64,000 bases of DNA from contig JAQWFB010000002.1 of the NCBI GenBank assembly GCA_028704635.1, forward strand, positions 64,693 through 128,692, in the 5' to 3' direction. The position numbers and the translations under genes are program-made. Shown one piece after another: positions 39,872 through 59,438 of the stretch; the first letter of the stretch is position 1; every line of letters begins with the position of its first letter. This DNA comes from Candidatus Shapirobacteria bacterium. Its GTDB lineage: Bacteria; Patescibacteriota; Microgenomatia; UBA12405. Under the pieces are notes generated by a model. That model was given only the letters and a program-made list of their open reading frames with translations, searched no databases and was not told the DNA's origin.

Positions 39872-40442
39872 CTTAATAAATAATAGCACAAAAAAACAAT
39901 ACAAGCACTAAAACCATCCATTTAGCAAAAAACTAGCTTAACTGCTAACCTTTAATAAATTTAAAAACACACCTAAAAACAGGCATATTTAATCTAAAAA
40001 TTAAACCTAAAAATCAAAAAAAATCCCAAAACTAATTTTTTTTCCCAAAAAGGATACAAATTACCTCCCTCTAACTCTTTATATATCAATATAATTCATC
40101 GTATCTTAAGCAAAATTTACTAAAAATTAATTCAATCTTAACTTTTAATTTAAAAAATTTTTATTTTTTTACTAAAAAAATCACTTCCTAATTAGCTTTT
40201 TGAAATCATCTTTGTACCCCTAAAGTATATCATTTAATATCTTTTAGAGTTAACCGCATTTCTCCGCATTAATAAATTTTGTCAGCTCGTATTAAGTTGT
40301 ATTTTGATTTCATTTATACCACATTGATAGTAGGTGCACCACCTGTGTTAACTATCGTGAAACTATTTTTTTTAGAAAAAAAATAAAAAAAATTGAAAAA
40401 CATACTATCAAAACATATCAGAAAAACGTCAAAAACGCCCTA

Positions 40443-40640: not shown

Positions 40641-41099
40641 ATGACCGCCCCCATCATTGTCTCCTATCAAAACTGGCTCAAATCCAAGTCCTACTCTGAG
40701 GCCACCATTCGCAATTATCTTGCCGACCTCAAAAAATATTTTCTCTTCACTAATTCCAATGTTGATCAAGTCACCGACAAAATTTTCGATCAAGACAACT
40801 TGTCTTCCTATTTCCAAAACATCAACCAAGACTCCAACTACAAACGTTTTCTTGCTTCTCTTTCTAAATTCTTCCAATTTGCCTTAGACCAACACCTAAT
40901 TTCTGTCAATCCTTTCTCCAAAGCCCTTAAAGTTGAACCCGAAATTGATCTCGAAGATGTTATCAAACTATATCAACAACAATTAGAGACCAAAAATTTT
41001 TCTCTTTCGACTATTCGAAACTATATCAATGACATTCATCAATTTATTAATTGGGCACAAAATGAAAGTCGCCCTGTTAAGGAAGATGTCACTAAGTGA
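40641..41099 (+). CDS. Protein made of two phage-integrase N-terminal SAM-like (core-binding) domains, with no catalytic domain.
   Basis: YQNWLKSKSYSEATIRNYLADLKKYFLF and LYQQQLETKNFSLSTIRNYINDIHQFINWAQ match the [YF]..L...S..T...Y...L..F..F pattern of the XerC/D N-domain. The ORF track opens at TTG 40617; ATG 40641 is preferred. Confidence 0.5.
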   Translation: MTAPIIVSYQNWLKSKSYSEATIRNYLADLKKYFLFTNSNVDQVTDKIFDQDNLSSYFQNINQDSNYKRFLASLSKFFQFALDQHLISVNPFSKALKVEPEIDLEDVIKLYQQQLETKNFSLSTIRNYINDIHQFINWAQNESRPVKEDVTK

Positions 41100-41114: not shown

Positions 41115-44100
41115 ATGGATTTAAATAAATTATTTAATCAATCCAGGTTTAACGAATACGCTGCTTTTCTAAAAAGCACCAATCTTTCTGATGCCAGCAT
41201 CCAACGTAAACTTTCTTCTCTTGCCTCTTTTCAAAAATTTCTGATTAAGAAAAAATATGTCTCTTTCGTAGAGACGCACGATCGCGCGTCTCTACTTTCA
41301 ATAAGCGAACATGCCGATTCACTCATACCAAAAACCTCACTTTTTTCCAATCTAAAATCAAAAATAAAATTACCACCCGTCATTGACGATTTACGATCAA
41401 ATTTTCTCTTTCGCTACATAGTTATCTTTTCTCTTTTTGCTATTAGTGCCGGTTTAGGTTTTACTCTTTATCGCCAAGCTGTTCTTCAATCACAACAAAA
41501 TCTCGCTTATTCCACTGCCTCAGCCATGATTACCGGTGGCCGCTTTTTATCTTTTCAGGGTCGTTTAACCGACACCGCCGGTAATCCTATAATATCTTCG
41601 ACAAGTATAGTTTTTAAACTATATCCATCAGTCGGATCTGGTACTACTCTATACACTTCTCAAACCGGTAACAGTCAAACCGTCGTTCCAGATGAGAATG
41701 GTATTTTCTCTGTTACTATCGGTAGAAGCCATGGTACCACTATTCCTTCCTCTGTCTTTACTGAAAATGCCGAAGTCTGGTTAGAAATCACTGCTGGGGG
41801 TGAAACAATGAATCCCCGTCAACAAATTGCTACCGTTGGTTACGCTTTAAATTCAGAAACTTTACAAGGCCTTCCCCCATCTGCTAGCGGTACCAAAAAC
41901 ACAGTGCTAGTTATTGATGGTTTAGGTAATCTTAACCTTGGAGAAACCTCTCCTACTATTAAATCAACTTCTGGCACTCTCGGTATCGAGGGTCAAGCTG
42001 TTCTAATTAAAGCTTCTGATGGTTCCGGCGGTAATATTACCATCAACCCAGATAGTAATGGCGTTATTAACTTAATCACTGAGGGTACTGGTGCCACTGG
42101 TTTTATCAATGCTACTAATGCCAACCTTGCTTCTGGTAATTTATTTAATGCCACCATAAATAATCTTAATCGTGGCTACAATTTCATTAATTTCAGCAAT
42201 TATAGTGTTGGCACTAGTATTGTTTCCCGTTTTTCAGTTGATGCCTACGGCAACACCATTATTGGTAATAATTTAACTATCGGAGGCACATTTGTATCAG
42301 TTGGATCTACTAATTTGGTTACTAAACTAAACTCTGATCTACTTGATGGTCATCATTCTTCATATTTCCTTAGCGTTGGTGATACTGGATCACTTCCTTA
42401 TGTCAACGATGCTACCAACACTACCCTTACTCGATCTGGCACTTCTGGTCCTTATACCCTAGGTCTTAATCTTAATAATACTAACACTTGGACGGCTATT
42501 CAAAATTTAAGTGCTGGTGCCACTATCTCCAACTTATCTGTTGGTGGTACTTTTATTTCAGTTGGTTCTACTAATTTAGTTACTAATCTTAATGCTGATT
42601 TATTAGATGGTAATAATTCCACTTATTTTGTCAATATTGGCCAAACTGGTAATTTTATTACTACTATTACCGGTGTTGGTATTTCTGTCTCCCCTACCTC
42701 TGGTACCAGTAGAACACTTACTAACATGGGCATTATGAATGCTACTAATGGAACTTTAACCAGATCTGGTTCCATTGGTTCTTATACTTTAGGATTAAAT
42801 CTCAACAACTCTAACACTTGGACGGCTATTCAAAATTTAAGTGCTGGTGCCACTATCTCCAACTTATCTGTTGGTGGTACTTTTATTTCAGTTGGTTCTA
42901 CTAATTTAGTTACTAATCTTAATGCTGATTATTTAAACGGTCTTCCTTCTAGTAGTTTTGTTGGTATTGGTTCCACTGGTAATTTCATCACTAATTTAAC
43001 CAATGGAGTTGGTATCACCATCACTGGTTCTGGTTCTTCTCGTAATATTGCTTTTGATTATGGTGCTTCCTTGTTAGCTACTGGCAATAAGATTGGGCTA
43101 AATTTTGGATCAATTAATACTTGGACGGCTAAACAAACTTTTGGCAACGCTGCTATTGGTGGAACTTTAGCCTTAACCCAAGGAGCTCAAGATGGTTATA
43201 TTTTAACCAGCGATGCCAGTGGTAATTCTTATTGGGCACCCAACACTGGCGTCGGAACAATCTATTTTGCTGGCAGTGGTTTAACTCTAACTGGTACTAC
43301 TTTTAAGCTTGGCGGTGCCCTTACTGAAAATGCTAATTTAACCATCGGTAACACTTCTGCTTTCTTTATCAATTCCACCACCGGCAACGTCGGCATTGGC
43401 ACCACTAACCCAAATAGGGCATTAGAAATTATGAAACAAGTTGATGGTGAAGTTCAATTAAGATTAGGTAATGGTCCAACTACATTTTGGGATTTAGGCA
43501 GAGATGGTTCAGACGGATATTTTAATATTAAAGATCAAAACGGAGCTAAAAGATTAGTTATAAACGATATTTCTGGCAACGTCGGCATTGGCACCACCAA
43601 TCCAACTTCAAAATTAACAGTTGCTGGTAATGTCAATATTTCCACCTCTCTCAATGTCGGCACCTCTCTTGTTGTCGGAACCAGCATTGAATTAAGCAGC
43701 AGCGGTAATAGATCTCTCAGTTATTACGACTCATCCACTAACGGTTATTTCACTCAAATGCAAACCACTGCCACTGGCGGTTATGGAACTTATGGCCCAG
43801 TTTCTGGTGACTGGGCTCTTTATAATCGATTTAGCGGTGCCAACACTCGTGGTTGGATTTGGCAACTTGGCACTGTCAATGTCGCTGGACTAAATGGCAA
43901 AGGTGATTTTCAAAACGCTGGTAATTTAACAGTCGGTGGCACTCTAAGTATTGGTTCTGTTCCAACTGCTTCAGATAATAATACTGTCTTAACTAGTGTT
44001 GGTGGAGTTGTTAGTTCAATTAATACTTCTGCTTGGGATAAAAATGCTTCAGATGATTTAACCACTTCTACCAATCTCTTTGTTATTAAAGCAGATAGTG

Positions 44101-47100: not shown

Positions 47101-50100
47101 CTTTAATCCAAAATTATCCATTAATTATGAAAAGTGCCTCTGGAACCTACGGTGGCGCTATTCGATATGACACTCTTGGTGGAGAATTTATGACCATGGC
47201 CACTAAAAATTCTGCTTCAAAATTATTATTTGCCACCGGTTTTGATCTTACCGCCAGCCAAGGTTCTAGCAATATTCTTCCTACCACTGTTGGCCTAGCT
47301 ATTTACAACAATAATGTCGGCATCGGCACAACTAATCCAACTTCAAAATTAACAGTTGCTGGTAATGGTAATTTCACTGGCAATCTCTCTGTTGGTGGAA
47401 CAGTCACTCTCTCATCCTCTGTTGCCTCTAATACTAGTGACACCACTGCTTTAATGATTAATGGTAGTAATGTAGTTACCAAAAGAACTCTTGGTGATCT
47501 AGCTTTTCAAAATAATGCTTCTCTTGGTTGGATTGCTAAAACAGCTTCAGGTAACTTAACAATTGGCACTGGTACTACTCTTAACTTCACTGGTATTAAT
47601 GGTTTAACCACTGCCAATGTTGGTTCTTCTCAAATTACTTTTAGTTTAGGTGGTTTCCTTTCTCAAAATACTGATATTGGTTTCTCTGGTTTCTCTCTTA
47701 GTTTTTCTGATGGTGGTAATACTTTAGTTTCATTTTCTTCTACTGGTAATACTTTCTATAATCCAACTACCTTTACTTCTAGTGGTGATGTATCTATTGC
47801 TTATGATTTGAATTTTACTAATTCAAATAATTCAAATATTAATACTGCTGGTCCTTTCTCTATTAATGCTGGTGAAGTCTTTAATTCTAGTAATTTAACT
47901 CTCCAAACTTATAACTCTGGAAAAATAATTCTTAATTCTAGTAATCTTTACACTGATGGCACCTATTTCGGTATTGGTACTACCAATCCAACCAGCACTC
48001 TTAGTGTTAATGGTAATGCTGATATTAATAATTTAGTTATTGATGGCACTTCTGGCACTGGATTAAATATCTCTAATAACAGTCTTACCACAGATATTAG
48101 TCTTCAGAATGGTGAAACTATTGATAATGACACTAATGGAAGAATTAACTTCTCTATTAGTGATCTTTATCTTAATAGTAGTATTTTCTTAACTTCAACT
48201 AGATTATTCCAAGCTGGTAATGGTACCGTTACCACTCCCGCTTATTCCTTCTCTTCTGACACTAATACTGGCATATACCGTATTGGTGAAGATAATATTG
48301 GTGTTGGTACTAGCGGAATTTTACGTCTTACTGTAGCTGGTAATGGTAATGTTGGTATTACTAAAAATCTTAATGTGGGTGGCACCTTAACCACCACTAC
48401 TCTTAAAGCTACCAATGCTCAAGATACAACCAAAGTTACTAATTTAAATGCTGACTTGTTAGATGGTAATGATTCCAGTGTTTTTACCACTCATAATGAA
48501 GTGACTGATTTAGGAACAGTTACTTTTTCCTCAGGTTCAGCTGTTACCACTGCCACCTTTATTACTGAATTAGAAAACAAAGGTGCTTTTGATAATTATC
48601 ACAGTATAATGAAAGCTAGTTGGGATTATTCCGGCAATAGCGATATTACTGACACTGGTTTCGGAACTTTCGAATTAGCAGGATGTGTTGTTGAAACTTG
48701 GACAGATGATTCAAGCGATGTCACTAGAGGTAATATCACTGTTCGAATCACTAGACCAACTACTGGATCAGGAGGAGGTCAAATTTTGGTTTATAACGAC
48801 CAAGGATCAACCTATAGTCCCGGGTGGAGACAAATTTGGAATTCTAGTACTGACGGTTCCGGTTCTGGCCTTGATGCTGATTTATTAGACGGTCTTCATT
48901 CAACTGCTTTTGAAGTCCCATTAACCTTTACTAATGGTTTAACCAGAAGCAGTAATGATGTTCATTTTGGTGGTGCTCTTACTGAAAATACCAGATTAAA
49001 CATTGGCAATACCGAAGTTATGTTCTTCAAATATGCTAATGGCAATGTCGGTATCGGAACGACTAACCCATTAGCCAAATTAAATGTTTATGGTCAAAGT
49101 TTATTTGGAACTACTAGAACCGGAGTTGGAGCTGCCAGTTCTGTTATAAATTTAGGGTCAGATGAATATATTAATTTCGCATGGAGTACGAGTTACCCAA
49201 CTGGTAATTATCATAGAATTGGTAAAGATAGAACTTTTGATAATTATGCTCTATCCTATATTTCTACCGGAGCCGACGCCACTACTAATCTAGCACATGT
49301 ATTCCGAACCACCAACACTGATTCAGCATTAGCAATTACGGCTGGTGGTAATATTGGTATCGGTACCACCGCTCCAGGCTACAAACTTGATGTTTCTGGT
49401 ACCGGTCGTTTTACTTCTAATTTAACAGTCGGTGGCACTTTAGCACTAACCCAAGGTGCTGCTAATGGTTATATTTTACAATCCGATGCTAATGGTAACG
49501 CTAAATGGATTGTTCCCTATGGTGTTGGTGGTACTAATAGTCTTTCTGCTGGTACTGATATTTCTATTACTTCTGTTGGTATTGGTCGAACCATCAACAA
49601 CACTTCTACTTTATCCACTGTTACTGGACGAGGATCTTCTACTTCTACTATGCTTTCTCTTCTTGGTGGAGCTTACTTTGGTACTGCTGGTGCTACTCAA
49701 GGTGTGTGGAAAGCTAATGGAACAGTGGGAATTGGGACTACTAATCCAAGCGGTGGAAAACTTCAAATATTTGGAGAAGGTGCAGCTAATGGTTTAAGTA
49801 TTTATAACGGCACCGGTGACACACTCAGATTATACCGAGTCAATAACGTAGGTATTCTAAGCAGAGGCGGAGTCGATACTGCCGGAATTGCCATTAATGT
49901 TTCTGGCAACGTCGGCATCGGTACAACTAATCCAGGAGTAAAATTAACAGTCACTAGGGGAGGGGCAATTTATGACGCCGCTCCAACCCTCGGCAGTGGC
50001 ACTGTTGGAGTATTTTCACTACTCTCTGGTAATGGTCTTTATGGGTTGTATAGCGGTATTTCCTCAAACGGCGACACCTGGCTTCAAAGTCAGAGGAATG

Positions 50101-53100
50101 ACGCCACTACTGCTGCATATAATATATTACTTAATCCCAGTGGTGGTAATATCGGCATCGGCACAACTAATCCTCTTTATAAGCTTCACGTTTCTGGTGA
50201 TGCTTTAATTTCAACTCGATTAGGTATTGGAGTTACCAATGCTTCTTATGCGTTAAATGTTTCTGGTAATGGTAATATTACTGGCAAATTAAACATTGGT
50301 ACCACCACTACCACCACTTCTCTTAATTTAACTAATACGGCAGTTGGTGGTTCTTCTATTGCTGCTTTCTTAAGTGGTAATAGTGGTTTAATTGGTTACA
50401 TCAGTACAGTTGGTTGGGATAAGAATACCGCTGATGATTACACCTCTTGGACACTTCAAGCCGATGGTGCTAACGGTTCTTCGATTACCTCTGGGTCTAC
50501 AGTTAATTTCGCTCATGGCACTAATATCAGTTTAGTTAAATCTGGTAATACCATTACTATTAATAATACTGCTTCTCCTTACACTGCTTCTAATGGTTTA
50601 TCTTTGGTTGGTCAAGATATTAGACTTGGCGGCACCTTAACTCAAAATACCGATATTGGTTTCTCTGGTTTCTCTCTTAGTTTTTCTGATGGTGGTAATA
50701 CTTTAGTTTCATTTTCTTCTACTGGTAATACTTTCTATAATCCAACTACCTTTACTTCTAGTGGTGATATATCTATTGCTTATGATTTGAATTTTACTAA
50801 TTCCACTGCTTCTTATATTCGATCTCAAGCTCCTCTATATATTCAAACAGAAAGTCCATATGCTAATTTAGATCTTAACTTAACTGCTGCTAATGCCGGC
50901 CAAATCTATTTAAATTCAAATGTTCAGGCTATGGCTAATTTAACTGTTGGTGGTACCTTCACCTCAGTTGGTTCCACTAATTTAGTCACTAATCTTAATG
51001 CTCAATATCTTAATGGCATTTCTTCTAATGGTTTTGTTGGTATTGGCCAAACTGGTAATTTCATTACTACACTTACCAACGGCACTGATATTAATATCAC
51101 TGGTTCTGGGACTAGTAGAACTATTAATAATACTTCTACCTTATCCACTGTTACTGGACGAGGATCTTCTACTTCTACTATGCTTTCTCTTCTTGGTGGA
51201 GCTTACTTTGGCACTGCTGGTGCTACTCAAGGTGTTTGGAAGGCTAATGGTACAGTTGGAATTGGGACGACTGCTCCAGGATACAAACTGGATATAATCA
51301 ATAATTCAGCCACTCAATTACGAGTCGCATCAGGCGTAGGGCAATTGCAAGGTGGAATTAGATTTGGAAATTACGATGCAACTCAAACCGCTGATATTTT
51401 ATTTACAGCCTCAGGACAAAACAGTTTAGATATTAGAACAAATTATAGTAGTACAAGCAATAAGATTACATTAAGCCCAGGCACTGTCACAGCAATGACT
51501 TTATTGGGCTCCGGTTATGTCGGTATCGGTATTAATCCACTCTATAAACTTCATGTGTCTGGTGATGCTTTAATCTCTACTCGATTAGGCATTGGAGCCA
51601 CTAATGCCAATTTTGCTTTAAATGTTGTTGGTAATGGTAATTTCACCGACTCTTTAAGTGTTGGAAAAACCTTAACCACCACCACCCTTAAAGCTACTAA
51701 TGCTCAAGACACTACCGTTATTACTAATTTAAATGCTGATTATTTAGATGCCCAAAATGGAAGTTATTATGACCAGCGAGTCTACACTAGCACTAATAAT
51801 TATTTAGGTGGTTATTATGTTAGTGGTGGAAGCGAAAAACCAAATAATACTATTTTTGGTGCTGGAAAATTAAAGCTAGCCATGTTGTCGGGTACTAATC
51901 TTGGTTTTGGTGGTAGCTGGAACGATGTTTTATGGTTAAGTTCTTATACCGGCGGTGATGTTAAAGGAAGTTACGCCATCATTGCCGACAAATATTCTGA
52001 TAATCTTTATTTCTCTAGACAAGACTATGATAGTGGTACTTGGGGCACAGGTAATAAATTATGGCATTCTAATAATGATGGTATCGGTTCTAGCCTTAAT
52101 GCTGATTTATTAGATGGTCTTCATGCATCTGCTTTTCTAACTACTCTAACTGGTGGCACCGACATCTCTATCACTGGTTCTGGTGTTGGTCGAACCATTA
52201 ATGACACTTCTACTTTATCCACTGTTACTGGACGAGGATCTTCTACTTCTACTATGCTTTCTCTTCTTGGTGGAGCTTACTTTGGCACTGCTGGTGCTAC
52301 TCAAGGTGTTTGGAAGGCTAATGGTACAGTTGGGATTGGAACCACCAATCCTCTTCAAAAGCTTCAAGTCGCCGGAGATATTAATATAGAAAGTGGATCT
52401 GGAATAAGAATTAATAACACTGCTACTTCTGGGTATTATCTCCGAGGCAATGGCACTAGATTTGTTTCTTCAGGTATCCAAGCCGCAGATGTTCCAACAT
52501 TAAACCAAGACACTACCGGTTCTGCAGGCACATTATCACGCGAAGACAACCGAACTATTTCACCAAGTGAATTAACTGCTGGAAAATTAAAATTCGGTTT
52601 CACTTCCTACACCAATAACGATACCGGCCCTTATGCAGACTTCTTACATTTTAGATCCTATACTGATGCTACAGGTGGTAATGACAACCTTTTAGTCTTA
52701 AACAAGACTGATTTTGGCATGAGGTTATACCAACAAACTTGGGGCAGTGCTTCTGCATATTCTACTTACAAAGATATAGCCTTAGTCGATAACGGTGCAG
52801 CTTTAAATTATCTTCCAAAATTTTCTGGAGTTGGCACTAATGTGAGAGTAACCAATTCCTCAATCTTCGACAATGGCAACGTCGGCATTGGCACTACTAA
52901 TCCAAGTTATAAACTAGACATTCAAAATACTAGTACTAGTATGGCTGTTAATATAGGATCGGTAGCTCAAACTCTATACAGCGATCTAGTTTTACACACC
53001 AATGGTGGTTCTGGTGAAATATTTAAAGCTGGTTCCGCTTACACTTCTTGGGGTGGTCCCTCATCTCTTAATATTTATAACAGCTCTGGCCCAATTGCTT

Positions 53101-56100
53101 TCCATTCCAACGGTACTGTTAATTCTATGTTTTTATCCACTGCCGGTAACTTAGGTATCGGTACTACTGCTCCAACCTCTAAATTACATGTCATTGGTAA
53201 CGGTAATATCACTGGTAATTTAACAATCGGTGGCACAGCTACCATCCCCAGAATTTTTATTAATAGAACCAGTAATACCGCTTCTGGTTTAAGTTGGTAC
53301 AGTCCTTCTTATACAGCTTGGTCAGAATATATGGGTCCAGCTGGCACAGCTTCCCAAGGACCAACAGGTAATATTACTGCTCCAACAGGAACATTAGTTA
53401 CTACTTGGGGTTTACGTAGTTTTATTGAAAATGCTAGTGGATATGGTTGGACATGGGAATCTGGAACAAGTGGCACCACCGCCCCCTCAATCGTAGCCGA
53501 ACTTTCATCCAATACTGGCAATTTTAAAACTATTGGAGCTGGAAATTTTGGCGGCAATCTTACTGTAGCCGGTGAAACTTATCTTAACGGTACTGTTCTC
53601 GAAGGAGACTCAAAAACCATGTTCCGTTATTCTGATAGTTATCTTAGACTCAACGAAGACAACGATTTTGGTAATGGTATCTGGACTGGAAATAGTAACT
53701 ATATGACTGGATCAGGATATATATCTCTTGGTTCAAACGGCGGCACAACCACTGGATCAATGTATTTATACGGCGGTGCTTACACCGGCACAAACTTAAT
53801 TAAACTTGATTCCAGTAGCACTTCTGCTATTTCTTATTTCAATGCCGGCAACGTCGGCATCGGCATCACCAATCCTCTTTATAAATTATCCGTCGGCACT
53901 TCCATCGGTGGTGATATTAATGGTAATTTAATGGCCCTTAGATTTTTAGACATTGGCAACACTCGTTATGGTTTCATCCCAAACAACACAGCATCCAATA
54001 AAAATTCTTTGTCTCTCACTTACACTGGTTCCATCAGATTTAATTACAATGACATCAGTAACTCTCATATCATTGCCGGTCCTGCCTCTCGTATCCAAAG
54101 TTTTTCTAATGGTCTTTTACTCGGCGTCAGTTCTACTACCACCGGCAATGTTGCTGGTTGGGATAATGATCTTTTCTTAAAAACGAATGGCAACGTCGGC
54201 ATCGGCACCACTGCTCCAGGAAGCAAATTAGATGTTGACGGAAATATTACCCAATCAGTCACTCATGGTAATAATATGAAATTATGGTTATCTGCAGCCA
54301 GAAATGGTAGTGGAACTGGAGAAATTGGTCTCTATTCATGGATTAGTGAACCAGGTATGACTTGGACTGGAGGGGGTATTGCTCGCAATATGTACAATAA
54401 TACTAGTTTTCCAAGAGTAAACACGGCACTATCTGGACAAATGTTACATTTCACCGAATCTGGAAACATTGAATTCGTTCTTACTAATACTTCAGGAACA
54501 CAAATTACCCCTATGACCATCCAATACAATAGTGGCAACGTCGGCATCGGCACAGCTAGTCCAAATCAAAAACTAGTTGTCACCGGAGGAAATATTGCTA
54601 TAGAGCAGAATTATCAATTTAATTTAAGCGTTGGTGATATTGGAGCTGCCTATTTAACTTATCCAAATTCTACAATAGGAGCAAAGCTTTATAGTTATTA
54701 TGATATCAACCTAACGACAAGATCAGGCGGTGGACTTACTATTGATGGTGCCACCGGCAACGTCGGTATTGGCACCACTGCTCCTAGAAGCAAACTAGAA
54801 GTCGTTTCTGGTACTCCAAATACCGATGCTGATTTATCTGGTACTGCTGGCAGTTTCAATTCTGCCACTCCAACTGGTCAAAGTTCAACTTTAAGTATAG
54901 AAAGTAATGATACTATAGCTGTTAATACTGGAGGTGTTCTTGGTTTTGGTGGTCGATACTCAGGCACTGCCTACGCCAATTGGGCCTCAATCAAAGGTTT
55001 AAAAGCCGATGGAACTTCTGGAAACTATGGTGGTTATCTTTCATTTTGGACTCGTCAAACCGGAGCTGGAAGTGTCGAAAGAATGAGAATTTCAGATGCT
55101 GGCAACGTCGGCATCGGCACAACTAATCCTGGAACCAATCTTGACCTTAATGGCACTTTCCGCCTCAATAACAATATATACCTCAATTCCGGCATTGCTA
55201 ATTTTTCAAATCTTGGTGATGTTGTTAATTTTAATAAATACCTCGGATCTAATACTACTCCCTCTTGGTCTACTGGGACTGCTGGTGGTACTGCTCGTTA
55301 CTCTCATTCTTCTGTTCTCTATAATGGTAAAATCTACTCTTGGGGAGGATCTAATGGTGCTCCTTTAAACACTGTTGACATCTATGATATTGCCTCTAAT
55401 ACCTGGTCTACTGGTACTGCTGGTGGTACTGCTCGTAATTATTATTCTTCTGTTCTCTATAATGGTAAAATCTACTCTTGGGGAGGATCTAATGGTTTTT
55501 CTTTAAACACTGTTGACATCTATGATATTGCCTCTAATACCTGGTCTACTGGTACTGCTGGTGGCACTGCTCGTTACGCTCATTCTTCTGTTCTCTATAA
55601 TGGTAAAATCTACTCTTGGGGAGGATATAATGGTTCCTTTTTAAACACTGTTGACATCTATGATATTGCCTCCAATACCTGGTCTACTGGTACTGCTGGT
55701 GGCACTGTTCGTTACCAACATTCTTCTGTTCTCTATAATGGTAAAATCTACTCTTGGGGAGGATTTAATGGTTCTAGTTTAAACACTGTTGACATCTATG
55801 ATATTGCCTCCAATACCTGGTCTACTGGGACTGCTGGTGGTACTGCTCGTTACTCTCATTCTTCTGTTCTCTATAATGGCAAAATATATTCTTGGGGAGG
55901 ATCTAATGGTTCTAGGTTAAACACTGTTGACATCTATGATATTGCCTCTAATACCTGGTCTACTGGGACTGCTGGTGGCACTGCCCGTTACGGTCATTCT
56001 TCTGTTCTCTATAATGGCAAAATATATTCTTGGGGAGGAACTAATGGTTCTTCTTTAAACACTGTTGATATTTATGATATTGGTAATCGTCAAAACATTC

Positions 56101-59100
56101 TTTCCATTCAAGAAAATGGACAAGATATGCTTAATTTCACCACTAATTCCACTCTCTTCACAAACTCTGGTCGCTTCTCCATTATGGGTGGCAACGTCGG
56201 CATTGGCACCACCGCTCCTTCTGCCCGCCTCACTGTCCTTGGCGATGGTAGTTCCGCCACTTCCGATTTTACTTTATTAAACAACAATGGTTCCGTTAAT
56301 CTCGAAATCCGCACTGGACTAACTGCTCTCTTTAATACTTTTATTGGAGTTGGAGTTGGTAGTTCCAACACCACCGGCCACTACAACACCGCTAATGGCA
56401 GTTATTCTCTTGCTTACAACACCACCGGCTACTACAACACCGCTAATGGTTTTCAATCTCTCTACTCCAACACCACCGGCTACTACAACACCGCTAATGG
56501 TTTTCAATCTCTCTACTCCAACACCACCGGCCACTACAACACCGCTAATGGCAGTTATTCTCTCTTTTCCAACACCACTGGCCGCGACAACACCGCTAAT
56601 GGTTTTTATTCTCTTTTTTACAACACCACCGGCTCCAACAACACCGCTAATGGTTTTTATTCTCTTTTTTACAACACCACCGGCTCCAACAACACCGCTA
56701 ATGGTTTTTATTCTCTTTTTTACAACACCACCGGCTCCAACAACACCGCCATGGGTTACAATTCTCTTGGTTCCGGCACCACCCTAAATTCCAACATCGG
56801 TCTTGGTTATTATGCTGGCTATAAACTCTCCGTTGGTTCCAGTAATATTTTCATCGGTAACAATAATGGTGCTACCGGTTCTTATGACAACCGTCTCTAT
56901 ATTGGTAATGGTTCAAATCCAATTATTTATGGTGATATGTCCACTGGAAACATCGGCATCGGCACCACCAATCCCCTCGAAAAATTAACAATTTCAGGAA
57001 GTGGTGCTGACGTACTTAGTCTAAAAGGTAGTGCTGGTACTAGATTTATTTTTAATGAGACTTGGAGTGGAACAGCTGATATTTTAGGAATTCGCAACAG
57101 TAACACTTCTAATCCTCAAGTTGTTCTTGATTGGAATGGCAACGTCGGCATCGGCACCGCCAACCCTCTTTTTAAAACTGAAATCTATGGCACTACACAA
57201 CTAACAGGTAATTTAACTGATGCTGGTAATCGAGGTAGTATGCTTGCTCTTAATGCAGCTGATTCAAATTATGGTAGTGGTGGAGCTTTACTTTTTGGTA
57301 ATCAACAATCCGATATAGCTAACTCTATCGGTTGGGCTGCAATTAAAGGATTTTTAATAAACGGAAATGGTAATACAACAGGTGATCTTGCTTTTTCTAC
57401 TAGAAACTCAACAGCAGATACTGCCTTAACCGAAAGAATGAGAATTTTAGCAACTGGCAATGTCGGCATCGGCACTGCTAATCCAGGAACTTTATTAAAT
57501 ATCTCCCAATCTATTCCAACCGGCACAGGAGCAATACCTACAAATAGCGGTTTACTTTTAGATTCAAATTCAAATAATTACCTTACCTTTAGAAATACTT
57601 CAGATAACGGATCTTATGCTGGTTTACAATTTTTAGATAATAATGTCGGGGGTTATATTGCTTTTAGAAATGCTATTGCCGGAGGAGCACATACTGACAG
57701 TATGGTATTAGGAACCTATCAAGATTTCTATTTCCAAACTGGAGCAAGTGGTATCGTGGATGGCAAAACTGATGTAATGACAATAAAACAAGGTGGTAAT
57801 GTCGGCATCGGTACCACTAATCCTGGCACCCGATTTGCTGTTGCTGGTCTTACTGGTACTACTGCTGGAAGCTACCTCCGTTATTACAACAACGATTTTT
57901 ATTACTATTCTTCCTCTGCTCGTTATAAAGATAATATTGAGGTTTTTAATGATGATTTCTCTAAAATCCTTAATATTGAACCTAAAATCTTCACCGACAA
58001 AGTCTCAGGCGAAAGAAATATCGGTCTTATCGCCGAAGAAATGGATGCCGCCGACCTAAAACACTTAGTCACTTATAAAAATGGCTTACCTGACACTGTT
58101 GAATATCAACTCGTTTCTGTCTACCTTCTTCAACTCGCCAAACAACAAAAACTCCAACTTGATAATCTTAATAATGACCTCACTTTAACTTCCACTGGCC
58201 AAATTAATGTCAATATGAATATTTCCGATGAAGTCCTCTCTTCTCTTGGTTATAATGGTGCCAAAAATGAAATCGAATCTGCCACCTATTCCATTACTGA
58301 TACTTTAGGCAACACCGTTTCTCGTATTTCTCAATTCAGCGAAATCGCTTCCGCTAAAATCAAAACTGGTCTCCTTTCCGCCACCAACATCATTACTAAA
58401 AACATGGTCGCTGAAAAAATCGTCTCTCCAAAAGCCACCATCAATCATCTTATTTCTACTGACATCCAAACCACTTCTGTCACCACCGAAGAACTAAATG
58501 CTCTACGATCTACGATCAACGATCTAACAGCTAACACTGCCACCGTCTCCACTCTTTATGCTGACAATATTATTTCCAAAGAAGGTTCCATTGGTGAATT
58601 AATGACCGCCAAAGTCAGTGCCCTCCGTGACGAACTTAAACAACTTGTAGAGACGCAACATGATGCATCTCCATCTGGAACCATCACTGGATCATCAATT
58701 CTTTCTCAATCTTCCGGCTGGGCAATGAATATTGCCAGTGATTCGGCAAAAATTACTGGTGACCTCGAGCTCGGCAACAGTCTCATTGTCGGCGCTAAAC
58801 TCACTGTCAACGGTGACACCCAACTCGGCAATGCCTTTATTTCTGGCACTTTCACTGCCGGCGAAATCGCCATTAAAGACAACTTTATCGAAACCACCAA
58901 CACCGCTCTCTATATCCAGCCATCACAAACTGGTTCAGTCCACATCATGGGCGACACTTTAGTCATCGCTGAAGACGGCAACATTCAAATCAATGGCAAC
59001 CTCACTGTTTCTGGCTCTCTCATGGCTAACCTCATTGTTGCCGACCAAATCCAAGCCAACAAATTAACTGCCAATGAAGTCTCTTCTAATGAAATAAAAA

Positions 59101-59438
59101 TTGCCACTGATTCCGCTCAAACCATCATTGCCGAATCTGGTTTTGGTGCCATTGCCACTTCTTCCGCCAAATTAACTTCCAACGCCACCGCCGGCACCGC
59201 CACTCTCCCAACTGGCAAAACCGAAATCGTCATTACCAATAATAAAATCACCGCCAACTCCATGGTCTACCTCACCCCAGTCGGTTCCACCAACAACCAA
59301 GTTCCCTACATCAAAACCAAAATGGTTTATTCCGAAGCTGAACTGCTCGCTGATCCAACTTTACAAAATTACTTCACCATCGCTCTTGATAATTATCTTG
59401 ACAAAGATATCGATATCAATTGGTGGATTATTAATTAA
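41115..59438 (+). CDS. Giant (6107 aa) membrane-anchored surface protein. Domains in order are an SAM-like N-domain, a TM, about 5000 aa of tail-fibre-like beta-helix repeats, six Kelch repeats, eight NTANG (YadA-head-like) repeats, an S74 intramolecular chaperone domain and a C-terminal WWIIN module.
   Basis: One uninterrupted 18.3-kb frame. The N-terminus is FNEYAAFLKSTNLSDASIQRKLSSLASFQKFL. The TM is IVIFSLFAISAGLGFTLY. Recurring motifs are GNVGIGTTNP..KL.V.G and NLNA[DQ][YL]L[DN]G. The chaperone region is SSARYKDNIEVF...IGLIAEEMDAADLKHLV...YQLVSVYLLQLAKQQ. The protein ends DIDINWWIIN. Confidence 0.85.
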   Translation: MDLNKLFNQSRFNEYAAFLKSTNLSDASIQRKLSSLASFQKFLIKKKYVSFVETHDRASLLSISEHADSLIPKTSLFSNLKSKIKLPPVIDDLRSNFLFRYIVIFSLFAISAGLGFTLYRQAVLQSQQNLAYSTASAMITGGRFLSFQGRLTDTAGNPIISSTSIVFKLYPSVGSGTTLYTSQTGNSQTVVPDENGIFSVTIGRSHGTTIPSSVFTENAEVWLEITAGGETMNPRQQIATVGYALNSETLQGLPPSASGTKNTVLVIDGLGNLNLGETSPTIKSTSGTLGIEGQAVLIKASDGSGGNITINPDSNGVINLITEGTGATGFINATNANLASGNLFNATINNLNRGYNFINFSNYSVGTSIVSRFSVDAYGNTIIGNNLTIGGTFVSVGSTNLVTKLNSDLLDGHHSSYFLSVGDTGSLPYVNDATNTTLTRSGTSGPYTLGLNLNNTNTWTAIQNLSAGATISNLSVGGTFISVGSTNLVTNLNADLLDGNNSTYFVNIGQTGNFITTITGVGISVSPTSGTSRTLTNMGIMNATNGTLTRSGSIGSYTLGLNLNNSNTWTAIQNLSAGATISNLSVGGTFISVGSTNLVTNLNADYLNGLPSSSFVGIGSTGNFITNLTNGVGITITGSGSSRNIAFDYGASLLATGNKIGLNFGSINTWTAKQTFGNAAIGGTLALTQGAQDGYILTSDASGNSYWAPNTGVGTIYFAGSGLTLTGTTFKLGGALTENANLTIGNTSAFFINSTTGNVGIGTTNPNRALEIMKQVDGEVQLRLGNGPTTFWDLGRDGSDGYFNIKDQNGAKRLVINDISGNVGIGTTNPTSKLTVAGNVNISTSLNVGTSLVVGTSIELSSSGNRSLSYYDSSTNGYFTQMQTTATGGYGTYGPVSGDWALYNRFSGANTRGWIWQLGTVNVAGLNGKGDFQNAGNLTVGGTLSIGSVPTASDNNTVLTSVGGVVSSINTSAWDKNASDDLTTSTNLFVIKADSGTAETLNVGNTINFVGGLGLGSTVSATDTITFNIGSSAGISVNTDTIGINIGLTGLGFSGTKLINTGLVGVSNSTLTRIGSNGNYTVGLNLANINTWTALQTFGNATVGGTLTMTGTNVGTGTTALFIASNGTVTKRALGTMAFDSGTYDNYNHWKLQTNSNGTTNVLTGNTVNFINGIGISLVQSGSTITVNNIGTGTTYAAGVGLSLSSSNIFSIDYDSTLDLNGNKISLNTGNANTWTGLQTFNATGAPFAVGSSVLVTNLNAQYLNGISSNGFVGIGQTGNFITTITGVGISVSPTSGTSRTLTNMGIMNATNGTLTRSGSIGSYTLGLNLGSNNSWSNGIGVSGTTNLTNALNVGGTVYFGSYVGIGTASPNKQLQIGSAANNSSIYNDYIGSINNMVLESRDSNDSGAFVFRSNSDVGTSDLVQITRLGYVGIGTTAPGYKLDVSGTGRFTSNLTVGGTLALTQGAANGYILTSDTSGNAKWLPNTGIGTTYAAGVGLSLSSSNIFSIDYDSTLDLNGNKISLNTGNANTWTGLQTFNATGAPFAVGSNTLVTNLNAQYLNGISSNGFVGIGQTGNFITTLTAGTDISITGSGVGRTINDTSTLSTVTGRGSSTSTMLSLLGGAYFGTAGATQGVWKANGTVGIGTTNPIYGKVEITTTASNTGGLSLYRGTGSTARSWITSNDVWLMQRSTNDNAGIAIDASGYVGIGTTAPGYRLDVSGTGRFTSNLTVGGTVSLTGTNVGTGTTALFIASNGTVTKRALGTMAFDSGTYDNYNHWKLQTNSNGTTNVLTGNTVNFINGIGISLVQSGSTITVNNVGAGTTYAAGVGLSLSSSSVFSINFGSANTWTGLQTFNATGAPFAVGSSVLVTNLNAQYLNGISSNGFVGIGQTGNFITTITGVGISVSPTSGTSRTLTNMGIMNATNGTLTRSGSIGSYTLGLNLGSNNSWSNGIGVSGTTNLTNALNVGGTAYFGSYVGIGTASPSSKLDVAGAISLIQNYPLIMKSASGTYGGAIRYDTLGGEFMTMATKNSASKLLFATGFDLTASQGSSNILPTTVGLAIYNNNVGIGTTNPTSKLTVAGNGNFTGNLSVGGTVTLSSSVASNTSDTTALMINGSNVVTKRTLGDLAFQNNASLGWIAKTASGNLTIGTGTTLNFTGINGLTTANVGSSQITFSLGGFLSQNTDIGFSGFSLSFSDGGNTLVSFSSTGNTFYNPTTFTSSGDVSIAYDLNFTNSNNSNINTAGPFSINAGEVFNSSNLTLQTYNSGKIILNSSNLYTDGTYFGIGTTNPTSTLSVNGNADINNLVIDGTSGTGLNISNNSLTTDISLQNGETIDNDTNGRINFSISDLYLNSSIFLTSTRLFQAGNGTVTTPAYSFSSDTNTGIYRIGEDNIGVGTSGILRLTVAGNGNVGITKNLNVGGTLTTTTLKATNAQDTTKVTNLNADLLDGNDSSVFTTHNEVTDLGTVTFSSGSAVTTATFITELENKGAFDNYHSIMKASWDYSGNSDITDTGFGTFELAGCVVETWTDDSSDVTRGNITVRITRPTTGSGGGQILVYNDQGSTYSPGWRQIWNSSTDGSGSGLDADLLDGLHSTAFEVPLTFTNGLTRSSNDVHFGGALTENTRLNIGNTEVMFFKYANGNVGIGTTNPLAKLNVYGQSLFGTTRTGVGAASSVINLGSDEYINFAWSTSYPTGNYHRIGKDRTFDNYALSYISTGADATTNLAHVFRTTNTDSALAITAGGNIGIGTTAPGYKLDVSGTGRFTSNLTVGGTLALTQGAANGYILQSDANGNAKWIVPYGVGGTNSLSAGTDISITSVGIGRTINNTSTLSTVTGRGSSTSTMLSLLGGAYFGTAGATQGVWKANGTVGIGTTNPSGGKLQIFGEGAANGLSIYNGTGDTLRLYRVNNVGILSRGGVDTAGIAINVSGNVGIGTTNPGVKLTVTRGGAIYDAAPTLGSGTVGVFSLLSGNGLYGLYSGISSNGDTWLQSQRNDATTAAYNILLNPSGGNIGIGTTNPLYKLHVSGDALISTRLGIGVTNASYALNVSGNGNITGKLNIGTTTTTTSLNLTNTAVGGSSIAAFLSGNSGLIGYISTVGWDKNTADDYTSWTLQADGANGSSITSGSTVNFAHGTNISLVKSGNTITINNTASPYTASNGLSLVGQDIRLGGTLTQNTDIGFSGFSLSFSDGGNTLVSFSSTGNTFYNPTTFTSSGDISIAYDLNFTNSTASYIRSQAPLYIQTESPYANLDLNLTAANAGQIYLNSNVQAMANLTVGGTFTSVGSTNLVTNLNAQYLNGISSNGFVGIGQTGNFITTLTNGTDINITGSGTSRTINNTSTLSTVTGRGSSTSTMLSLLGGAYFGTAGATQGVWKANGTVGIGTTAPGYKLDIINNSATQLRVASGVGQLQGGIRFGNYDATQTADILFTASGQNSLDIRTNYSSTSNKITLSPGTVTAMTLLGSGYVGIGINPLYKLHVSGDALISTRLGIGATNANFALNVVGNGNFTDSLSVGKTLTTTTLKATNAQDTTVITNLNADYLDAQNGSYYDQRVYTSTNNYLGGYYVSGGSEKPNNTIFGAGKLKLAMLSGTNLGFGGSWNDVLWLSSYTGGDVKGSYAIIADKYSDNLYFSRQDYDSGTWGTGNKLWHSNNDGIGSSLNADLLDGLHASAFLTTLTGGTDISITGSGVGRTINDTSTLSTVTGRGSSTSTMLSLLGGAYFGTAGATQGVWKANGTVGIGTTNPLQKLQVAGDINIESGSGIRINNTATSGYYLRGNGTRFVSSGIQAADVPTLNQDTTGSAGTLSREDNRTISPSELTAGKLKFGFTSYTNNDTGPYADFLHFRSYTDATGGNDNLLVLNKTDFGMRLYQQTWGSASAYSTYKDIALVDNGAALNYLPKFSGVGTNVRVTNSSIFDNGNVGIGTTNPSYKLDIQNTSTSMAVNIGSVAQTLYSDLVLHTNGGSGEIFKAGSAYTSWGGPSSLNIYNSSGPIAFHSNGTVNSMFLSTAGNLGIGTTAPTSKLHVIGNGNITGNLTIGGTATIPRIFINRTSNTASGLSWYSPSYTAWSEYMGPAGTASQGPTGNITAPTGTLVTTWGLRSFIENASGYGWTWESGTSGTTAPSIVAELSSNTGNFKTIGAGNFGGNLTVAGETYLNGTVLEGDSKTMFRYSDSYLRLNEDNDFGNGIWTGNSNYMTGSGYISLGSNGGTTTGSMYLYGGAYTGTNLIKLDSSSTSAISYFNAGNVGIGITNPLYKLSVGTSIGGDINGNLMALRFLDIGNTRYGFIPNNTASNKNSLSLTYTGSIRFNYNDISNSHIIAGPASRIQSFSNGLLLGVSSTTTGNVAGWDNDLFLKTNGNVGIGTTAPGSKLDVDGNITQSVTHGNNMKLWLSAARNGSGTGEIGLYSWISEPGMTWTGGGIARNMYNNTSFPRVNTALSGQMLHFTESGNIEFVLTNTSGTQITPMTIQYNSGNVGIGTASPNQKLVVTGGNIAIEQNYQFNLSVGDIGAAYLTYPNSTIGAKLYSYYDINLTTRSGGGLTIDGATGNVGIGTTAPRSKLEVVSGTPNTDADLSGTAGSFNSATPTGQSSTLSIESNDTIAVNTGGVLGFGGRYSGTAYANWASIKGLKADGTSGNYGGYLSFWTRQTGAGSVERMRISDAGNVGIGTTNPGTNLDLNGTFRLNNNIYLNSGIANFSNLGDVVNFNKYLGSNTTPSWSTGTAGGTARYSHSSVLYNGKIYSWGGSNGAPLNTVDIYDIASNTWSTGTAGGTARNYYSSVLYNGKIYSWGGSNGFSLNTVDIYDIASNTWSTGTAGGTARYAHSSVLYNGKIYSWGGYNGSFLNTVDIYDIASNTWSTGTAGGTVRYQHSSVLYNGKIYSWGGFNGSSLNTVDIYDIASNTWSTGTAGGTARYSHSSVLYNGKIYSWGGSNGSRLNTVDIYDIASNTWSTGTAGGTARYGHSSVLYNGKIYSWGGTNGSSLNTVDIYDIGNRQNILSIQENGQDMLNFTTNSTLFTNSGRFSIMGGNVGIGTTAPSARLTVLGDGSSATSDFTLLNNNGSVNLEIRTGLTALFNTFIGVGVGSSNTTGHYNTANGSYSLAYNTTGYYNTANGFQSLYSNTTGYYNTANGFQSLYSNTTGHYNTANGSYSLFSNTTGRDNTANGFYSLFYNTTGSNNTANGFYSLFYNTTGSNNTANGFYSLFYNTTGSNNTAMGYNSLGSGTTLNSNIGLGYYAGYKLSVGSSNIFIGNNNGATGSYDNRLYIGNGSNPIIYGDMSTGNIGIGTTNPLEKLTISGSGADVLSLKGSAGTRFIFNETWSGTADILGIRNSNTSNPQVVLDWNGNVGIGTANPLFKTEIYGTTQLTGNLTDAGNRGSMLALNAADSNYGSGGALLFGNQQSDIANSIGWAAIKGFLINGNGNTTGDLAFSTRNSTADTALTERMRILATGNVGIGTANPGTLLNISQSIPTGTGAIPTNSGLLLDSNSNNYLTFRNTSDNGSYAGLQFLDNNVGGYIAFRNAIAGGAHTDSMVLGTYQDFYFQTGASGIVDGKTDVMTIKQGGNVGIGTTNPGTRFAVAGLTGTTAGSYLRYYNNDFYYYSSSARYKDNIEVFNDDFSKILNIEPKIFTDKVSGERNIGLIAEEMDAADLKHLVTYKNGLPDTVEYQLVSVYLLQLAKQQKLQLDNLNNDLTLTSTGQINVNMNISDEVLSSLGYNGAKNEIESATYSITDTLGNTVSRISQFSEIASAKIKTGLLSATNIITKNMVAEKIVSPKATINHLISTDIQTTSVTTEELNALRSTINDLTANTATVSTLYADNIISKEGSIGELMTAKVSALRDELKQLVETQHDASPSGTITGSSILSQSSGWAMNIASDSAKITGDLELGNSLIVGAKLTVNGDTQLGNAFISGTFTAGEIAIKDNFIETTNTALYIQPSQTGSVHIMGDTLVIAEDGNIQINGNLTVSGSLMANLIVADQIQANKLTANEVSSNEIKIATDSAQTIIAESGFGAIATSSAKLTSNATAGTATLPTGKTEIVITNNKITANSMVYLTPVGSTNNQVPYIKTKMVYSEAELLADPTLQNYFTIALDNYLDKDIDINWWIIN
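41267..41294. repeat. REP-like palindrome (family 2) lying in-frame within the 5' end of the giant ORF.
   Basis: GTAGAGACGCACGATCGCGCGTCTCTAC encodes ...FVETHDRASLL.... Confidence 0.8.
55258..56085 (+). repeat. Six tandem 138-bp coding repeats (Kelch-like blades) inside the giant gene.
   Basis: The unit WSTGTAGGTARYSHSSVLYNGKIYSWGGSNG.PLNTVDIYDIASNT occurs six times, with above 90% nucleotide identity between units. Confidence 0.85.
56373..56770 (+). repeat. Eight tandem 51-bp coding repeats (YYNTANGFQSLYSNTTG; Hep_Hag / YadA-head-like).
   Basis: Direct repeats ...accaccggc[tc]actacaacaccgctaatgg[tc]... read in sequence. Confidence 0.8.

Follow-up and report, generated by a model that had tools for sequence, protein, structure and literature searches.

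A giant gene of a Shapirobacteria genome with the make-up of a membrane-anchored surface fibre

We examined a 64,000-nucleotide stretch of DNA from Candidatus Shapirobacteria bacterium (GenBank assembly GCA_028704635.1, contig JAQWFB010000002.1, positions 64,693 to 128,692 of the forward strand; hereafter the window), in which one gene, at 41115..59438 on the + strand, encodes a protein of 6107 amino acids (aa). We think it probable that this giant gene specifies a membrane-anchored adhesive fibre of the cell surface, a distant and six-fold enlarged member of the MAT type found in Bdellovibrio. The reading is built on the computed domain make-up of the protein, the homology of its shaft to MAT fibres and of individual modules to phage tail fibres, a Peptidase_S74 (S74) domain with its Ser-Lys dyad, a single transmembrane (TM) helix, an architecture shared by a family of relatives, and conserved neighbouring genes. 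Bacterial, non-viral fibres of the S74 type are already known as adhesins: the MAT fibres of Bdellovibrio bacteriovorus (Bd2133, Bd3182, Bd1334, Bd2439, Bd2734 and Bd2740; NCBIfam NF053851) grip prey (Caulton et al. 2024, PMC10769870). In bacteria belonging to the candidate phyla radiation (CPR, Patescibacteria), cell recognition is largely unknown beyond the Saccharibacteria, where type IV pili and unnamed adhesins have been implicated (PMC11665869, PMC10633639). The locus described here is a concrete candidate for cell-holding in the large branch formed by the Microgenomates.

The giant gene is a single open reading frame (ORF) that runs from ATG to TAA with no internal stop and takes up 28.6% of the window, as an earlier reading made from the sequence alone (the sequence-only reading) had stated (18.3 kb, about 29%). 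An AGAGGG resembling a Shine-Dalgarno (SD) sequence lies 8 nt 5' of the ATG at 41115. Gly, Thr, Ser and Asn together account for 49% of the residues, and Cys occurs once. The GC content at third codon positions (GC3) is 0.264, compared to 0.262 for the leucyl-tRNA synthetase (LeuRS) gene, and the codon use of the giant gene is native. The window itself is part of a low-GC bacterial chromosome, with genes for MreB, LeuRS, PGI, ComEC, an M16 peptidase and two tRNAs, and TGA, TAA and TAG are all in use as stops, TGA ending 9 of the 31 ORFs. Ten neighbouring genes (in 23770-27568, 32562-33224, 39458-41099 and 59489-63887) were scanned against PHROG, and none matched a phage structural family; the two annotated phage-family matches were to an integrase (in a SAM-like unit described below) and to an HNH endonuclease (in a DUF559 ORF). 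The setting is therefore cellular and not that of a prophage, and the claim of the sequence-only reading that no other phage genes are present was borne out for these neighbours as far as structural families go.

Within the gene, an exact repeat of 379 nt is present at 44808 and 46650, and several further internal repeats are 93-99% identical. A near-identical independent assembly was not found, as an exact look-up of the 499-aa protein encoded next to the giant gene gave nothing, and a metagenome scan with a segment from the middle of the gene gave a best identity of 62-70%.

Architecture of the giant protein

The shaft (aa ~260-5590; 41892..57884, +) carries the comparison with MAT fibres. 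Motif counts, DNA repeats and a profile search of the PDB resolved it into a mosaic with 25 full and about 6 partial beta-helix modules of the MAT type, marked by the capping-loop motif GNVGIGTTNPxxKLxV. The core pattern G[NYT][VIL]GIG[TI] occurred 25 times, nearly always running on as ..TTNPxxKLxVxG, and the NLNADLLDG-type pattern L[ND][AS][DQ][LY]L[DN][GA] occurred 11 times; motifs of this phage-fibre type had been reported by the sequence-only reading. Many shaft segments are duplicated, at 60-100% DNA identity. When a profile made from 20 GNVGIGT modules was compared with all of the PDB, it matched 8ond (Bd2133; E 1.1e-26), 8oml (4e-14), 8ojn (5e-13), 8on4 and 8ol4. All five are crystal structures of Bdellovibrio MAT proteins, and nothing else was matched at E<0.9. 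The capping-loop motif (V-G-x-x-x-x-P-x-x-x-L) and the division into S74 and non-S74 organisations have been described for the MAT fibres (PMC10769870). A profile of the NLNADLLDG units found no relatives in the PDB.

Four further units are set into the shaft. A globular insert at aa ~2476-2579 (48540..48851, +), lying between two LDADLLDG motifs, is homologous to tail fibre protein S of phage Mu (P2/Mu type; PDB 8ju3, E 3.9e-18). It matched 94 phage records by tblastn, with E values down to 3e-15 and with the listed top genes mostly annotated as tail fibre, and it also matched phrog_21834 (E 3.4e-13). A second insert, or knob, at aa ~3547-3660 (51753..52094, +) lies between two LNADxLDG motifs, and its flanks repeat the flanks of the first; no significant match to it was obtained in the PDB or Pfam. 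A six-blade Kelch beta-propeller (aa ~4710-4995; 55242..56099, +) is formed by six 46-aa repeats with a period of 138 nt and 83-94% DNA identity. The Kelch assignment, which the sequence-only reading had also made, was unambiguous, with a Pfam E value of 4.5e-63 for six repeats at aa ~4717-4990, scores of 212.9 bits for PF24681 and 157 bits over 6 stretches for PF01344, and matches to Kelch proteins of the PDB at E 3e-38. Lastly, eight 17-aa repeats (xYNTANGxxSLxxNTTG; aa ~5083-5220; 56312..56872, +) recur with a period of 51 nt and are predicted to form a beta-roll-like stretch.

The sequence-only reading had likened part of the protein to YadA heads. The 17-aa repeats exist, but the label proved unsupported, and a reading as a trimeric autotransporter adhesin was rejected with it. 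Pfam gave no family at E<=1 for aa 5050-5260, and BLASTP against a relative that bears the YadA_head family PF05658 (P0034) gave an E value of 0.26, which is not significant. A YadA C-terminal beta-barrel anchor was likewise absent from the families matched by aa 5696-6107 (Pfam at E<=1; NCBIfam).

On the membrane side of the shaft, aa ~134-251 (41514..41867, +) form a juxtamembrane beta-sandwich (pLDDT >90, the confidence score of AlphaFold2, AF2) that appears related to the N-terminal domain of MAT proteins, a conserved beta-rich unit of ~130 aa. Its match to the NCBIfam model NF053851 (Bdello_MAT_N) had an E value of 2.6e-7 and 30.6 bits, under the cutoff of 60, and the same model was matched at E<=1e-3 by 31 of 48 homologous N-termini, the best at 9e-10. 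Foldseek placed the model among macroglobulin and Ig-like sandwiches. As a lone query in a homologue search, the domain returned 7 CPR fragments and nothing else.

Preceding this domain is the one TM helix of the protein (aa 96-128; 41400..41498, +), in agreement with the N-terminal anchor proposed in the sequence-only reading. The sole hydrophobic segment is aa 96-121, with the Kyte-Doolittle peak in windows at aa 96-102, and AF2 modelled a helix at 97-128 with a pLDDT of ~95. Because basic residues are more frequent on its N-terminal side (4 K/R in the preceding 22 aa versus 1 after it), an N-in/C-out topology is predicted. The first 50 residues (41115..41264, +) would then be cytoplasmic. 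They were modelled as a three-helix SAM-like unit resembling the N-terminal part of Xer recombinases and integrases (helices at aa 3-45, pLDDT >90). The Pfam model Phage_int_SAM_1 matched with 21.2 bits (cutoff 22.3; E 3.5e-4) over profile positions 47-83, its second half, and 29 of the 48 homologues of the N-terminal part matched the XerC N-terminus. The recombinase catalytic domain (R-H-R-Y) was not matched in the giant protein or in the small ORF upstream of it, the matches being confined to the N-terminal SAM-like part. Residues 51-95 form a linker of low pLDDT that is predicted to be disordered and cytoplasmic.

The linker contains a perfect 28-bp palindrome, GTAGAGACG-N10-CGTCTCTAC (41268..41295), which encodes aa 52-61, VETHDRASLL. 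Five copies were present in the window (13107-13134, 38467-38494, 39047-39074, 41268-41295 and 63919-63946), against 0 expected, two of them within intact coding sequence, namely the LeuRS ORF (11432..13861) and the giant ORF. Similar peptides were seen in the linkers of homologues, VQTPDRASLQ occurring twice in P0103. The palindrome looks like a REP-like (repetitive extragenic palindromic) element that tolerates in-frame insertion.

At the far end of the shaft is an S74 chaperone/autoprotease domain (aa 5600-5690; 57912..58184, +). Scored on the isolated aa 5559-5695, PF13884 gave 26.2 bits (cutoff 22; E 1e-5). The dyad Ser5600/Lys5605, in S-S-A-R-Y-K, aligns with the SDxRxK of homologues (SDRRLK, SDSRVK). 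The AF2 model of the domain (pLDDT ~90) was superimposed by Foldseek on the S74 intramolecular chaperones (IMC) of phages with a probability of 1.0 and a root-mean-square deviation of 1.5-3.4 A over ~86-97 residues. Most homologues carry PF13884, and relative P0113 scores 52.5 bits. The sequence-only reading had described a C-terminal S74 domain; the domain was upheld by score and fold but its position was not, as 507 aa follow Ser5600. With the Mu gpS/P2-type insert and a match to PHROG 9942, the S74 domain bears out the homology with phage tail fibres that had been noted from the motifs.

The residues that follow fall into two parts. A conserved post-chaperone module (aa ~5691-6015; 58185..59159, +) combines helical, coiled-coil-like segments with a short beta-helix and is up to 85-87% identical to relatives whose shafts differ. 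The protein then closes with a beta-sandwich (aa 6016-6107; 59160..59435, +; AF2 pLDDT ~95) that ends in INWWIIN-COOH. Neither the C-module (the last 418 residues) nor the terminal domain is described by a family in Pfam or NCBIfam, and the C-module was not found in the viral contigs of IMG/VR, where the S74 part alone was matched. The short beta-helix bears a weak resemblance to bactofilin (PF04519, 21.6 bits); as this lies under the gathering score of 27.9, identity of the C-module as a bactofilin was rejected.

Relatives in the Microgenomates and partner genes

Comparison with the giant genes of related CPR genomes, which the sequence-only reading had proposed, revealed the same plan in Microgenomates relatives of up to 5546 aa. 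An exhaustive HMMER scan with the C-module gave 804 representative clusters, 357 of them at E<=1e-10. The module closed the protein in every case, and the longest proteins with it had 5546, 4759, 4620 and 4417 aa. Among the 150 best representative relatives, 140 had the terminal motif within the last 14 residues and 87 ended exactly in NWWIIN. Relatives longer than 2000 aa with an apparently true N-terminus followed one plan: a start of the form ...S.ATI.RKLSSL..FQKFL, an FQGRL domain at aa ~120-160, GIG modules and the NWWIIN end.

Homologues of both ends came almost exclusively from records with Microgenomates-type labels (Shapiro-, Woese-, Beckwith-, Pace-, Roizman- and Gottesmanbacteria), a few being labelled Berkelbacteria, 'Marinimicrobia' or 'bacterium'. 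In the genome scan, many loci go under the name 'uncultured Gammaproteobacteria' or 'Pseudomonadales', bulk-submission titles that we presume to be unreliable. The nearest genome is a Candidatus Shapirobacteria metagenome-assembled genome, in which the counterparts of the C-module and of the 718-aa neighbour are each 85% identical and that of the 499-aa neighbour is 73% identical. Among the loci found there were one or two fibre genes per genome.

The shaft is rearranged even in relatives whose ends are 57-81% identical. P0113 has 13 FG-GAP repeats where the giant protein has Kelch, and in P0002 and P0137 the position of S74 is taken by Peptidase_G2, an unrelated self-cleaving chaperone. This exchange at the same position argues that cleavage between shaft and C-module is the selected property. 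With its conserved ends and mosaic middle, the family could serve as a marker of partner specificity in metagenomes.

The sequence-only reading had taken the gene for a domesticated phage fibre, a history that remains unproven. The fibre family appears instead to be an old cellular family that shares modules with phages, whichever the direction of transfer. This is suggested by the MAT-matching shaft and juxtamembrane domain, by an architecture conserved in hundreds of Microgenomates clusters and by native codon use. Fragments of the family are misnamed in NCBI and JGI records, N-termini as 'site-specific integrase' and C-termini as 'polymer-forming cytoskeletal protein / bactofilin CcmA' (P0060, P0070, P0075, P0076 and P0080; P0007, P0009 and P0017). 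On the sequence comparisons, neither name is borne out by the domains that define it.

Three genes accompany the fibre gene. The first, immediately upstream (40641..41099, +), encodes a small protein of 152 aa from the ATG at 40641 (the ORF is listed from a TTG at 40617) that is predicted to be cytoplasmic and to consist of 2-3 helical SAM-like core-binding units of the Xer/integrase N-terminal type. Pfam Phage_int_SAM_1 matched it at E 3.5e-12, and NCBIfam recognised the N-terminal region of XerC/XerD and no other part. The gene lies directly 5' of the fibre gene in loci L007 (where the two overlap in TAATG, in different frames), L014, L035 and L076. In the more distant relatives P0070, P0103 and P0106 SAM-like units are fused to the fibre as one ORF, and some relatives have 3-4 tandem units; fusion in other lineages is a Rosetta-stone indication that the small protein and the fibre act together. 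In the window the small and the giant ORF share a frame and are separated by one TGA (41097-41099). Read-through from one into the other was considered and rejected, since TGA is a common stop here, the SD-like AGAGGG precedes the ATG at 41115 and the frames differ in L007.

The second gene (59489..60988, +) begins 50 nt after the stop of the giant gene, and the terminator scan found no + strand terminator-like site in this gap. Its 499-aa product has an acidic low-complexity N-terminus, one TM segment (aa ~145-166), a TPR region and a terminal beta-sandwich ending in FKWWIIN. The last 86 aa are 35% identical to the terminus of the giant protein (E 4e-13). A homologue of near full length was found in about 29 related loci and was 3' of the fibre gene wherever coordinates were compared (for example in L001, L002, L005 and L007), with other genes intervening at some loci. 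The third gene (61731..63887, -) encodes a polytopic membrane protein of 718 aa with a C-terminal TPR domain. Among 80 related loci, 44 have a homologue within 10 kb of the fibre gene, and these 44 extend from Shapirobacteria to Beckwith-, Gottesman- and Blackburnbacteria. We rejected an assignment of the 718-aa protein as an enzyme resembling O-antigen ligase or oligosaccharyltransferase because neither Wzy_C nor any other family was matched and TPR alone was recognised.

Taken against this anatomy, the core idea of the sequence-only reading, a phage-fibre-like protein that serves as a surface appendage and has an N-terminal TM anchor, stood; the post-S74 module, the integrase-N-like unit and the partner genes had been missed. 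In the literature that we searched, not exhaustively, the combination of an Xer-N-like unit, a TM helix, a MAT_N-like domain, a giant mosaic shaft, S74 or G2, the NWWIIN module and partner genes was not described. MAT adhesins of the S74 type, the curated model of their N-domain and giant CPR surface proteins were already known; by that literature, the combined architecture and the partner cluster appear to be new. Three features are not described by current domain libraries: the post-chaperone NWWIIN module, the terminal domain shared with the neighbour, and the integrase-N-like cytoplasmic units.

Proposed working of the fibre and competing explanations

Surface display, trimerisation, cleavage and host binding are what homology to S74 proteins and MAT fibres would lead one to expect of the giant protein. 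From the sequence and the AF2 prediction, the first ~95 residues would stay in the cytoplasm, the TM helix would be a permanent anchor and ~5980 residues would lie outside. By homology, three chains would associate, and the S74 chaperone would nucleate folding at the C-terminal end, from where it would proceed toward the membrane to give an intertwined beta-helical shaft of the MAT type. Ser5600 and Lys5605 would then cut the chain and release a C-terminal piece of 507 residues, a step that is supported because the dyad is conserved and because relatives hold either S74 or Peptidase_G2 at exactly this position. If the rise per residue is like that of Bd3182, the mature fibre could reach roughly 0.3 micrometre, an extrapolation in which ~550 A for the 922 aa of Bd3182 (PMC10769870) is scaled to ~5470 extracellular residues. 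Along it, the Mu gpS-like domain, the second knob, the Kelch propeller and the block of 17-aa repeats would be potential ligand-binding units that, by analogy, would bind structures on the surface of another cell or of a substrate. Synteny and gene fusion suggest that the small SAM-like protein, the 499-aa TM and TPR protein and the polytopic TPR protein probably aid assembly or anchoring. With the shared terminal domain also considered, the 499-aa protein might offer the C-module a platform on which to dock, and the cytoplasmic unit of the fibre might be bound by the small protein.

The likeness to MAT fibres extends over several features: the capping-loop modules of the shaft (for example GNVGIGATAPTAKLEV in Bd2133), a beta-rich domain directly after the export or anchor signal (in the giant protein a match under the family cutoff), a chaperone of the self-cleaving S74 type (in one MAT subgroup), the use of borrowed binding domains as a mosaic, and the cellular setting. 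The differences are also considerable. The giant protein is about six times as long (6107 aa versus ~1000 aa), comes from a CPR organism of monoderm type and has a 95-aa cytoplasmic segment and an uncleaved TM helix (aa 96-128) in place of the cleavable signal peptide of MAT proteins. About 430 extra conserved residues follow its S74 domain, and there are one or two genes per genome compared to 21. The fibre shares principles with the prey-recognition fibres of Bdellovibrio and with phage receptor-binding proteins, yet would be anchored and assembled differently.

Two kinds of phage fibre invite a similar comparison. The S74/IMC tailspikes and fibres (K1F endosialidase 3gw6, T5 pb1, cyanophage Pam1 7eea and the Klebsiella phage K1 lyase 7w1c) have the same fold and Ser-Lys dyad, and their S74 domain is likewise preceded by a beta-helical region with VGIG..P...L loops, whereas the giant protein is outside any virion and does not end with its chaperone domain. 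With the phage Mu gpS and P2 gpH type (8ju3) it shares one domain of ~100 aa flanked by LDADLLDG motifs, but here this is a single internal module of a 6107-aa cellular protein, and no gene for a tail-fibre assembly chaperone is adjacent.

Several points weigh against an adhesive fibre of MAT type. No demonstration of an episymbiotic lifestyle of Shapirobacteria was found in the literature consulted; the attachment organelle of an episymbiont, as the sequence-only reading had it, is a reasonable idea if MAT fibres and the giant surface proteins of other CPR bacteria are taken as analogues. The match to Bdello_MAT_N, well under the curated cutoff, supports a relationship weakly, and the S74 score is marginal (20.7 bits) when the domain is scored within a piece of 3107 aa. 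MAT fibres have their binding domains at the end, while the candidates here (Kelch, Mu gpS-like) lie inside the chain, and cleavage would leave an ordinary shaft module at the distal tip, with no obvious receptor-binding domain. Since 507 residues follow the cleavage serine, compared to the usual ~100-150, a simple model in which the chaperone is discarded may be incomplete. Nor does an adhesin model offer a role for the cytoplasmic SAM-like unit. Finally, the 379-nt exact repeat makes the exact length and the module copy number (~44.4-47.1 kb) uncertain from this assembly.

A broader proposal can also be made, and we offer it as a speculation with perhaps a modest chance of being right. The fibre gene would be the cargo of a previously undescribed surface-fibre system found throughout the Microgenomates. 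The NWWIIN beta-sandwich would be a lineage-specific C-terminal docking or sorting domain common to the fibre, the adjacent TM and TPR protein and hundreds of other secreted proteins; the post-chaperone module would hold three C-termini on a membrane platform until S74 or G2 cleaves; and the Xer-core-binding-like units of the fibre and its small partner would connect the fibre base with DNA or with a partner in the cytoplasm, so that the whole would sense contact as well as adhere. C-terminal sorting domains such as that of type IX secretion offer an analogy, in that a beta-sandwich of ~90 aa has a fixed place at the very end of many secreted proteins that are not related in other respects. 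Neither sequence nor fold gave a match to such a domain, however, and a sorting role of the giant protein's terminus is purely hypothetical. CPR bacteria are not known to have an outer membrane or a type IX secretion system.

The protein might instead be a structural component of the envelope, a fibrous coat, spacer or S-layer-like canopy that keeps cells apart or protects them and whose Kelch domain and knobs bind the cell's own wall or glycans. We regard this as improbable, though it has several points in its favour. The loci found amount to one or two such genes per genome, as opposed to 21 MAT paralogues in Bdellovibrio (PMC10769870), the ends of the fibre are strongly conserved, and genes nearby also encode large surface proteins (two with six Laminin_G_3 domains each, and Big_1 proteins). 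In the CPR bacterium Vampirococcus, fibrous coats have been attributed to giant proteins (PMC8080830). V. lugosii has giant surface proteins of up to 4163 aa, for which host attachment was proposed (PMC8080830), and it resembles the present case in having very large predicted membrane or surface proteins in a small genome; its proteins differ in carrying WD40, PKD, integrin and fibronectin-type domains, and no MAT/S74 fibre architecture was reported (PMC8080830). What speaks for an adhesive fibre and not a coat is the middle of the protein, which is highly variable and rearranged between close relatives, a pattern typical of partner recognition and not of scaffolds. The nearest characterised relatives, moreover, are adhesins and phage receptor-binding proteins.

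Appreciably less likely is a contact sensor with a topology like that of ToxR or CadC, in which engagement or tension of the fibre would be passed through the TM helix to the Xer-core-binding-like units and a small partner that bind DNA or a regulator. The N-terminal unit, a conserved part of the family, shares homology with the N-domain by which tyrosine recombinases bind DNA, 3-4 tandem units are fused in some relatives, and the single TM is oriented N-in. Recombination itself is excluded because no catalytic domain is present. Against signalling, the unit of the giant protein covers just the second half of the Pfam model (47-83) and falls under its cutoff, no target site or regulated gene was identified, and a disordered linker of 45 residues that tolerates an inserted palindrome separates the unit from the membrane. 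The eukaryotic membrane-bound transcription factor MyRF (S74/ICA) is similar in that one chain unites a domain of DNA-binding type, a membrane span and an S74 domain that trimerises and cleaves itself (PMC10769870 and general knowledge). In the giant protein, however, the TM helix lies between the N-terminal unit and S74, so cleavage cannot free the unit from the membrane.

We give little credence to an assembly artefact, in which repeats were mis-joined into an over-long ORF, or to a pseudogene. The 379-nt exact repeat, the many near-identical segments and the want of an independent near-identical assembly would allow for it, but a stop-free stretch of 18.3 kb at 39% GC cannot have come about by chance, independent assemblies contain relatives of 4000-5546 aa that have the same ends, and repeats mis-joined in frame would alter how many copies there are but leave the protein the same in kind. 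That the gene is the tail fibre of a prophage or of its decaying remnant is the least credible explanation, since the S74 domain, the Mu gpS-like domain, the PHROG tail-fibre match and the integrase-N-like ORF upstream are set against ten PHROG-scanned neighbours with no capsid, terminase, portal, tail or lysis gene, an 'integrase' that has no catalytic domain, being instead a conserved partner which other lineages fuse to the fibre, an N-terminal membrane anchor, a C-module absent from IMG/VR, GC3 as in housekeeping genes and a gene order conserved over many Microgenomates lineages.

Other features of the window

Between the 499-aa and 718-aa genes lies an ORF (61063-61509) for a DUF559 protein, resembling a very-short-patch-repair endonuclease, a homologue of which is at the same spot in L001 on the opposite strand. 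A terminator-like bidirectional hairpin follows it at 61634-61655. A second family of GC-rich palindromes (CCTCCCTTGACAGGGAGG-like) was seen at 59624-59809, where the N-terminal part of the 499-aa ORF is repetitive and acidic, and at 61444-61474, in the DUF559 ORF; these were flagged on the minus strand by the terminator scan.

The two Laminin_G_3 genes (27598-32565 and 33268-38406) encode surface-type proteins of 1655 and 1712 aa, each with an N-terminal TM, DUF2341 and six Laminin_G_3 domains. By Pfam scan, the one search applied to them, they contain no phage domain. Homologues are near the fibre gene in L060, L078, L029 and L014. The 220-aa ORF between the two genes has a sub-threshold match to an IS200-type transposase.

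A run of four + strand ORFs (23770-27568) is a possible locus for a CPR pilus or surface appendage. The 469-aa ORF matched the NCBIfam model CPR_Pam_pilin_C ('Pam pilus system pilin subunit') at E 3e-4, under cutoff, and the 332-aa ORF contains a domain like the WxL-interacting peptidoglycan-binding domain that falls just under the Pfam cutoff (26.8 versus 27.3 bits). Ig domains of the Big_1/intimin-like type were found in the 137-aa ORF of this run and in a 148-aa ORF at 39458..39904 (-). L007 shows synteny for the 296-aa and 137-aa ORFs (26246..27568) and for the Big_1 ORF, while homologues of the 469-aa and 332-aa ORFs occur in other loci only (L051, L069 and L079).

A borderline tRNA-like Rfam match (29.6 bits, cutoff 29) at 38643-38712 on the - strand was not called by ARAGORN; it sits in an AT-rich, palindrome-bearing intergenic region at 38.4-39.4 kb. 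GC skew was -0.27 to -0.45 over the first 24 kb (1-24000), despite genes on both strands, and near zero over the genes for large surface proteins (28000-58000).

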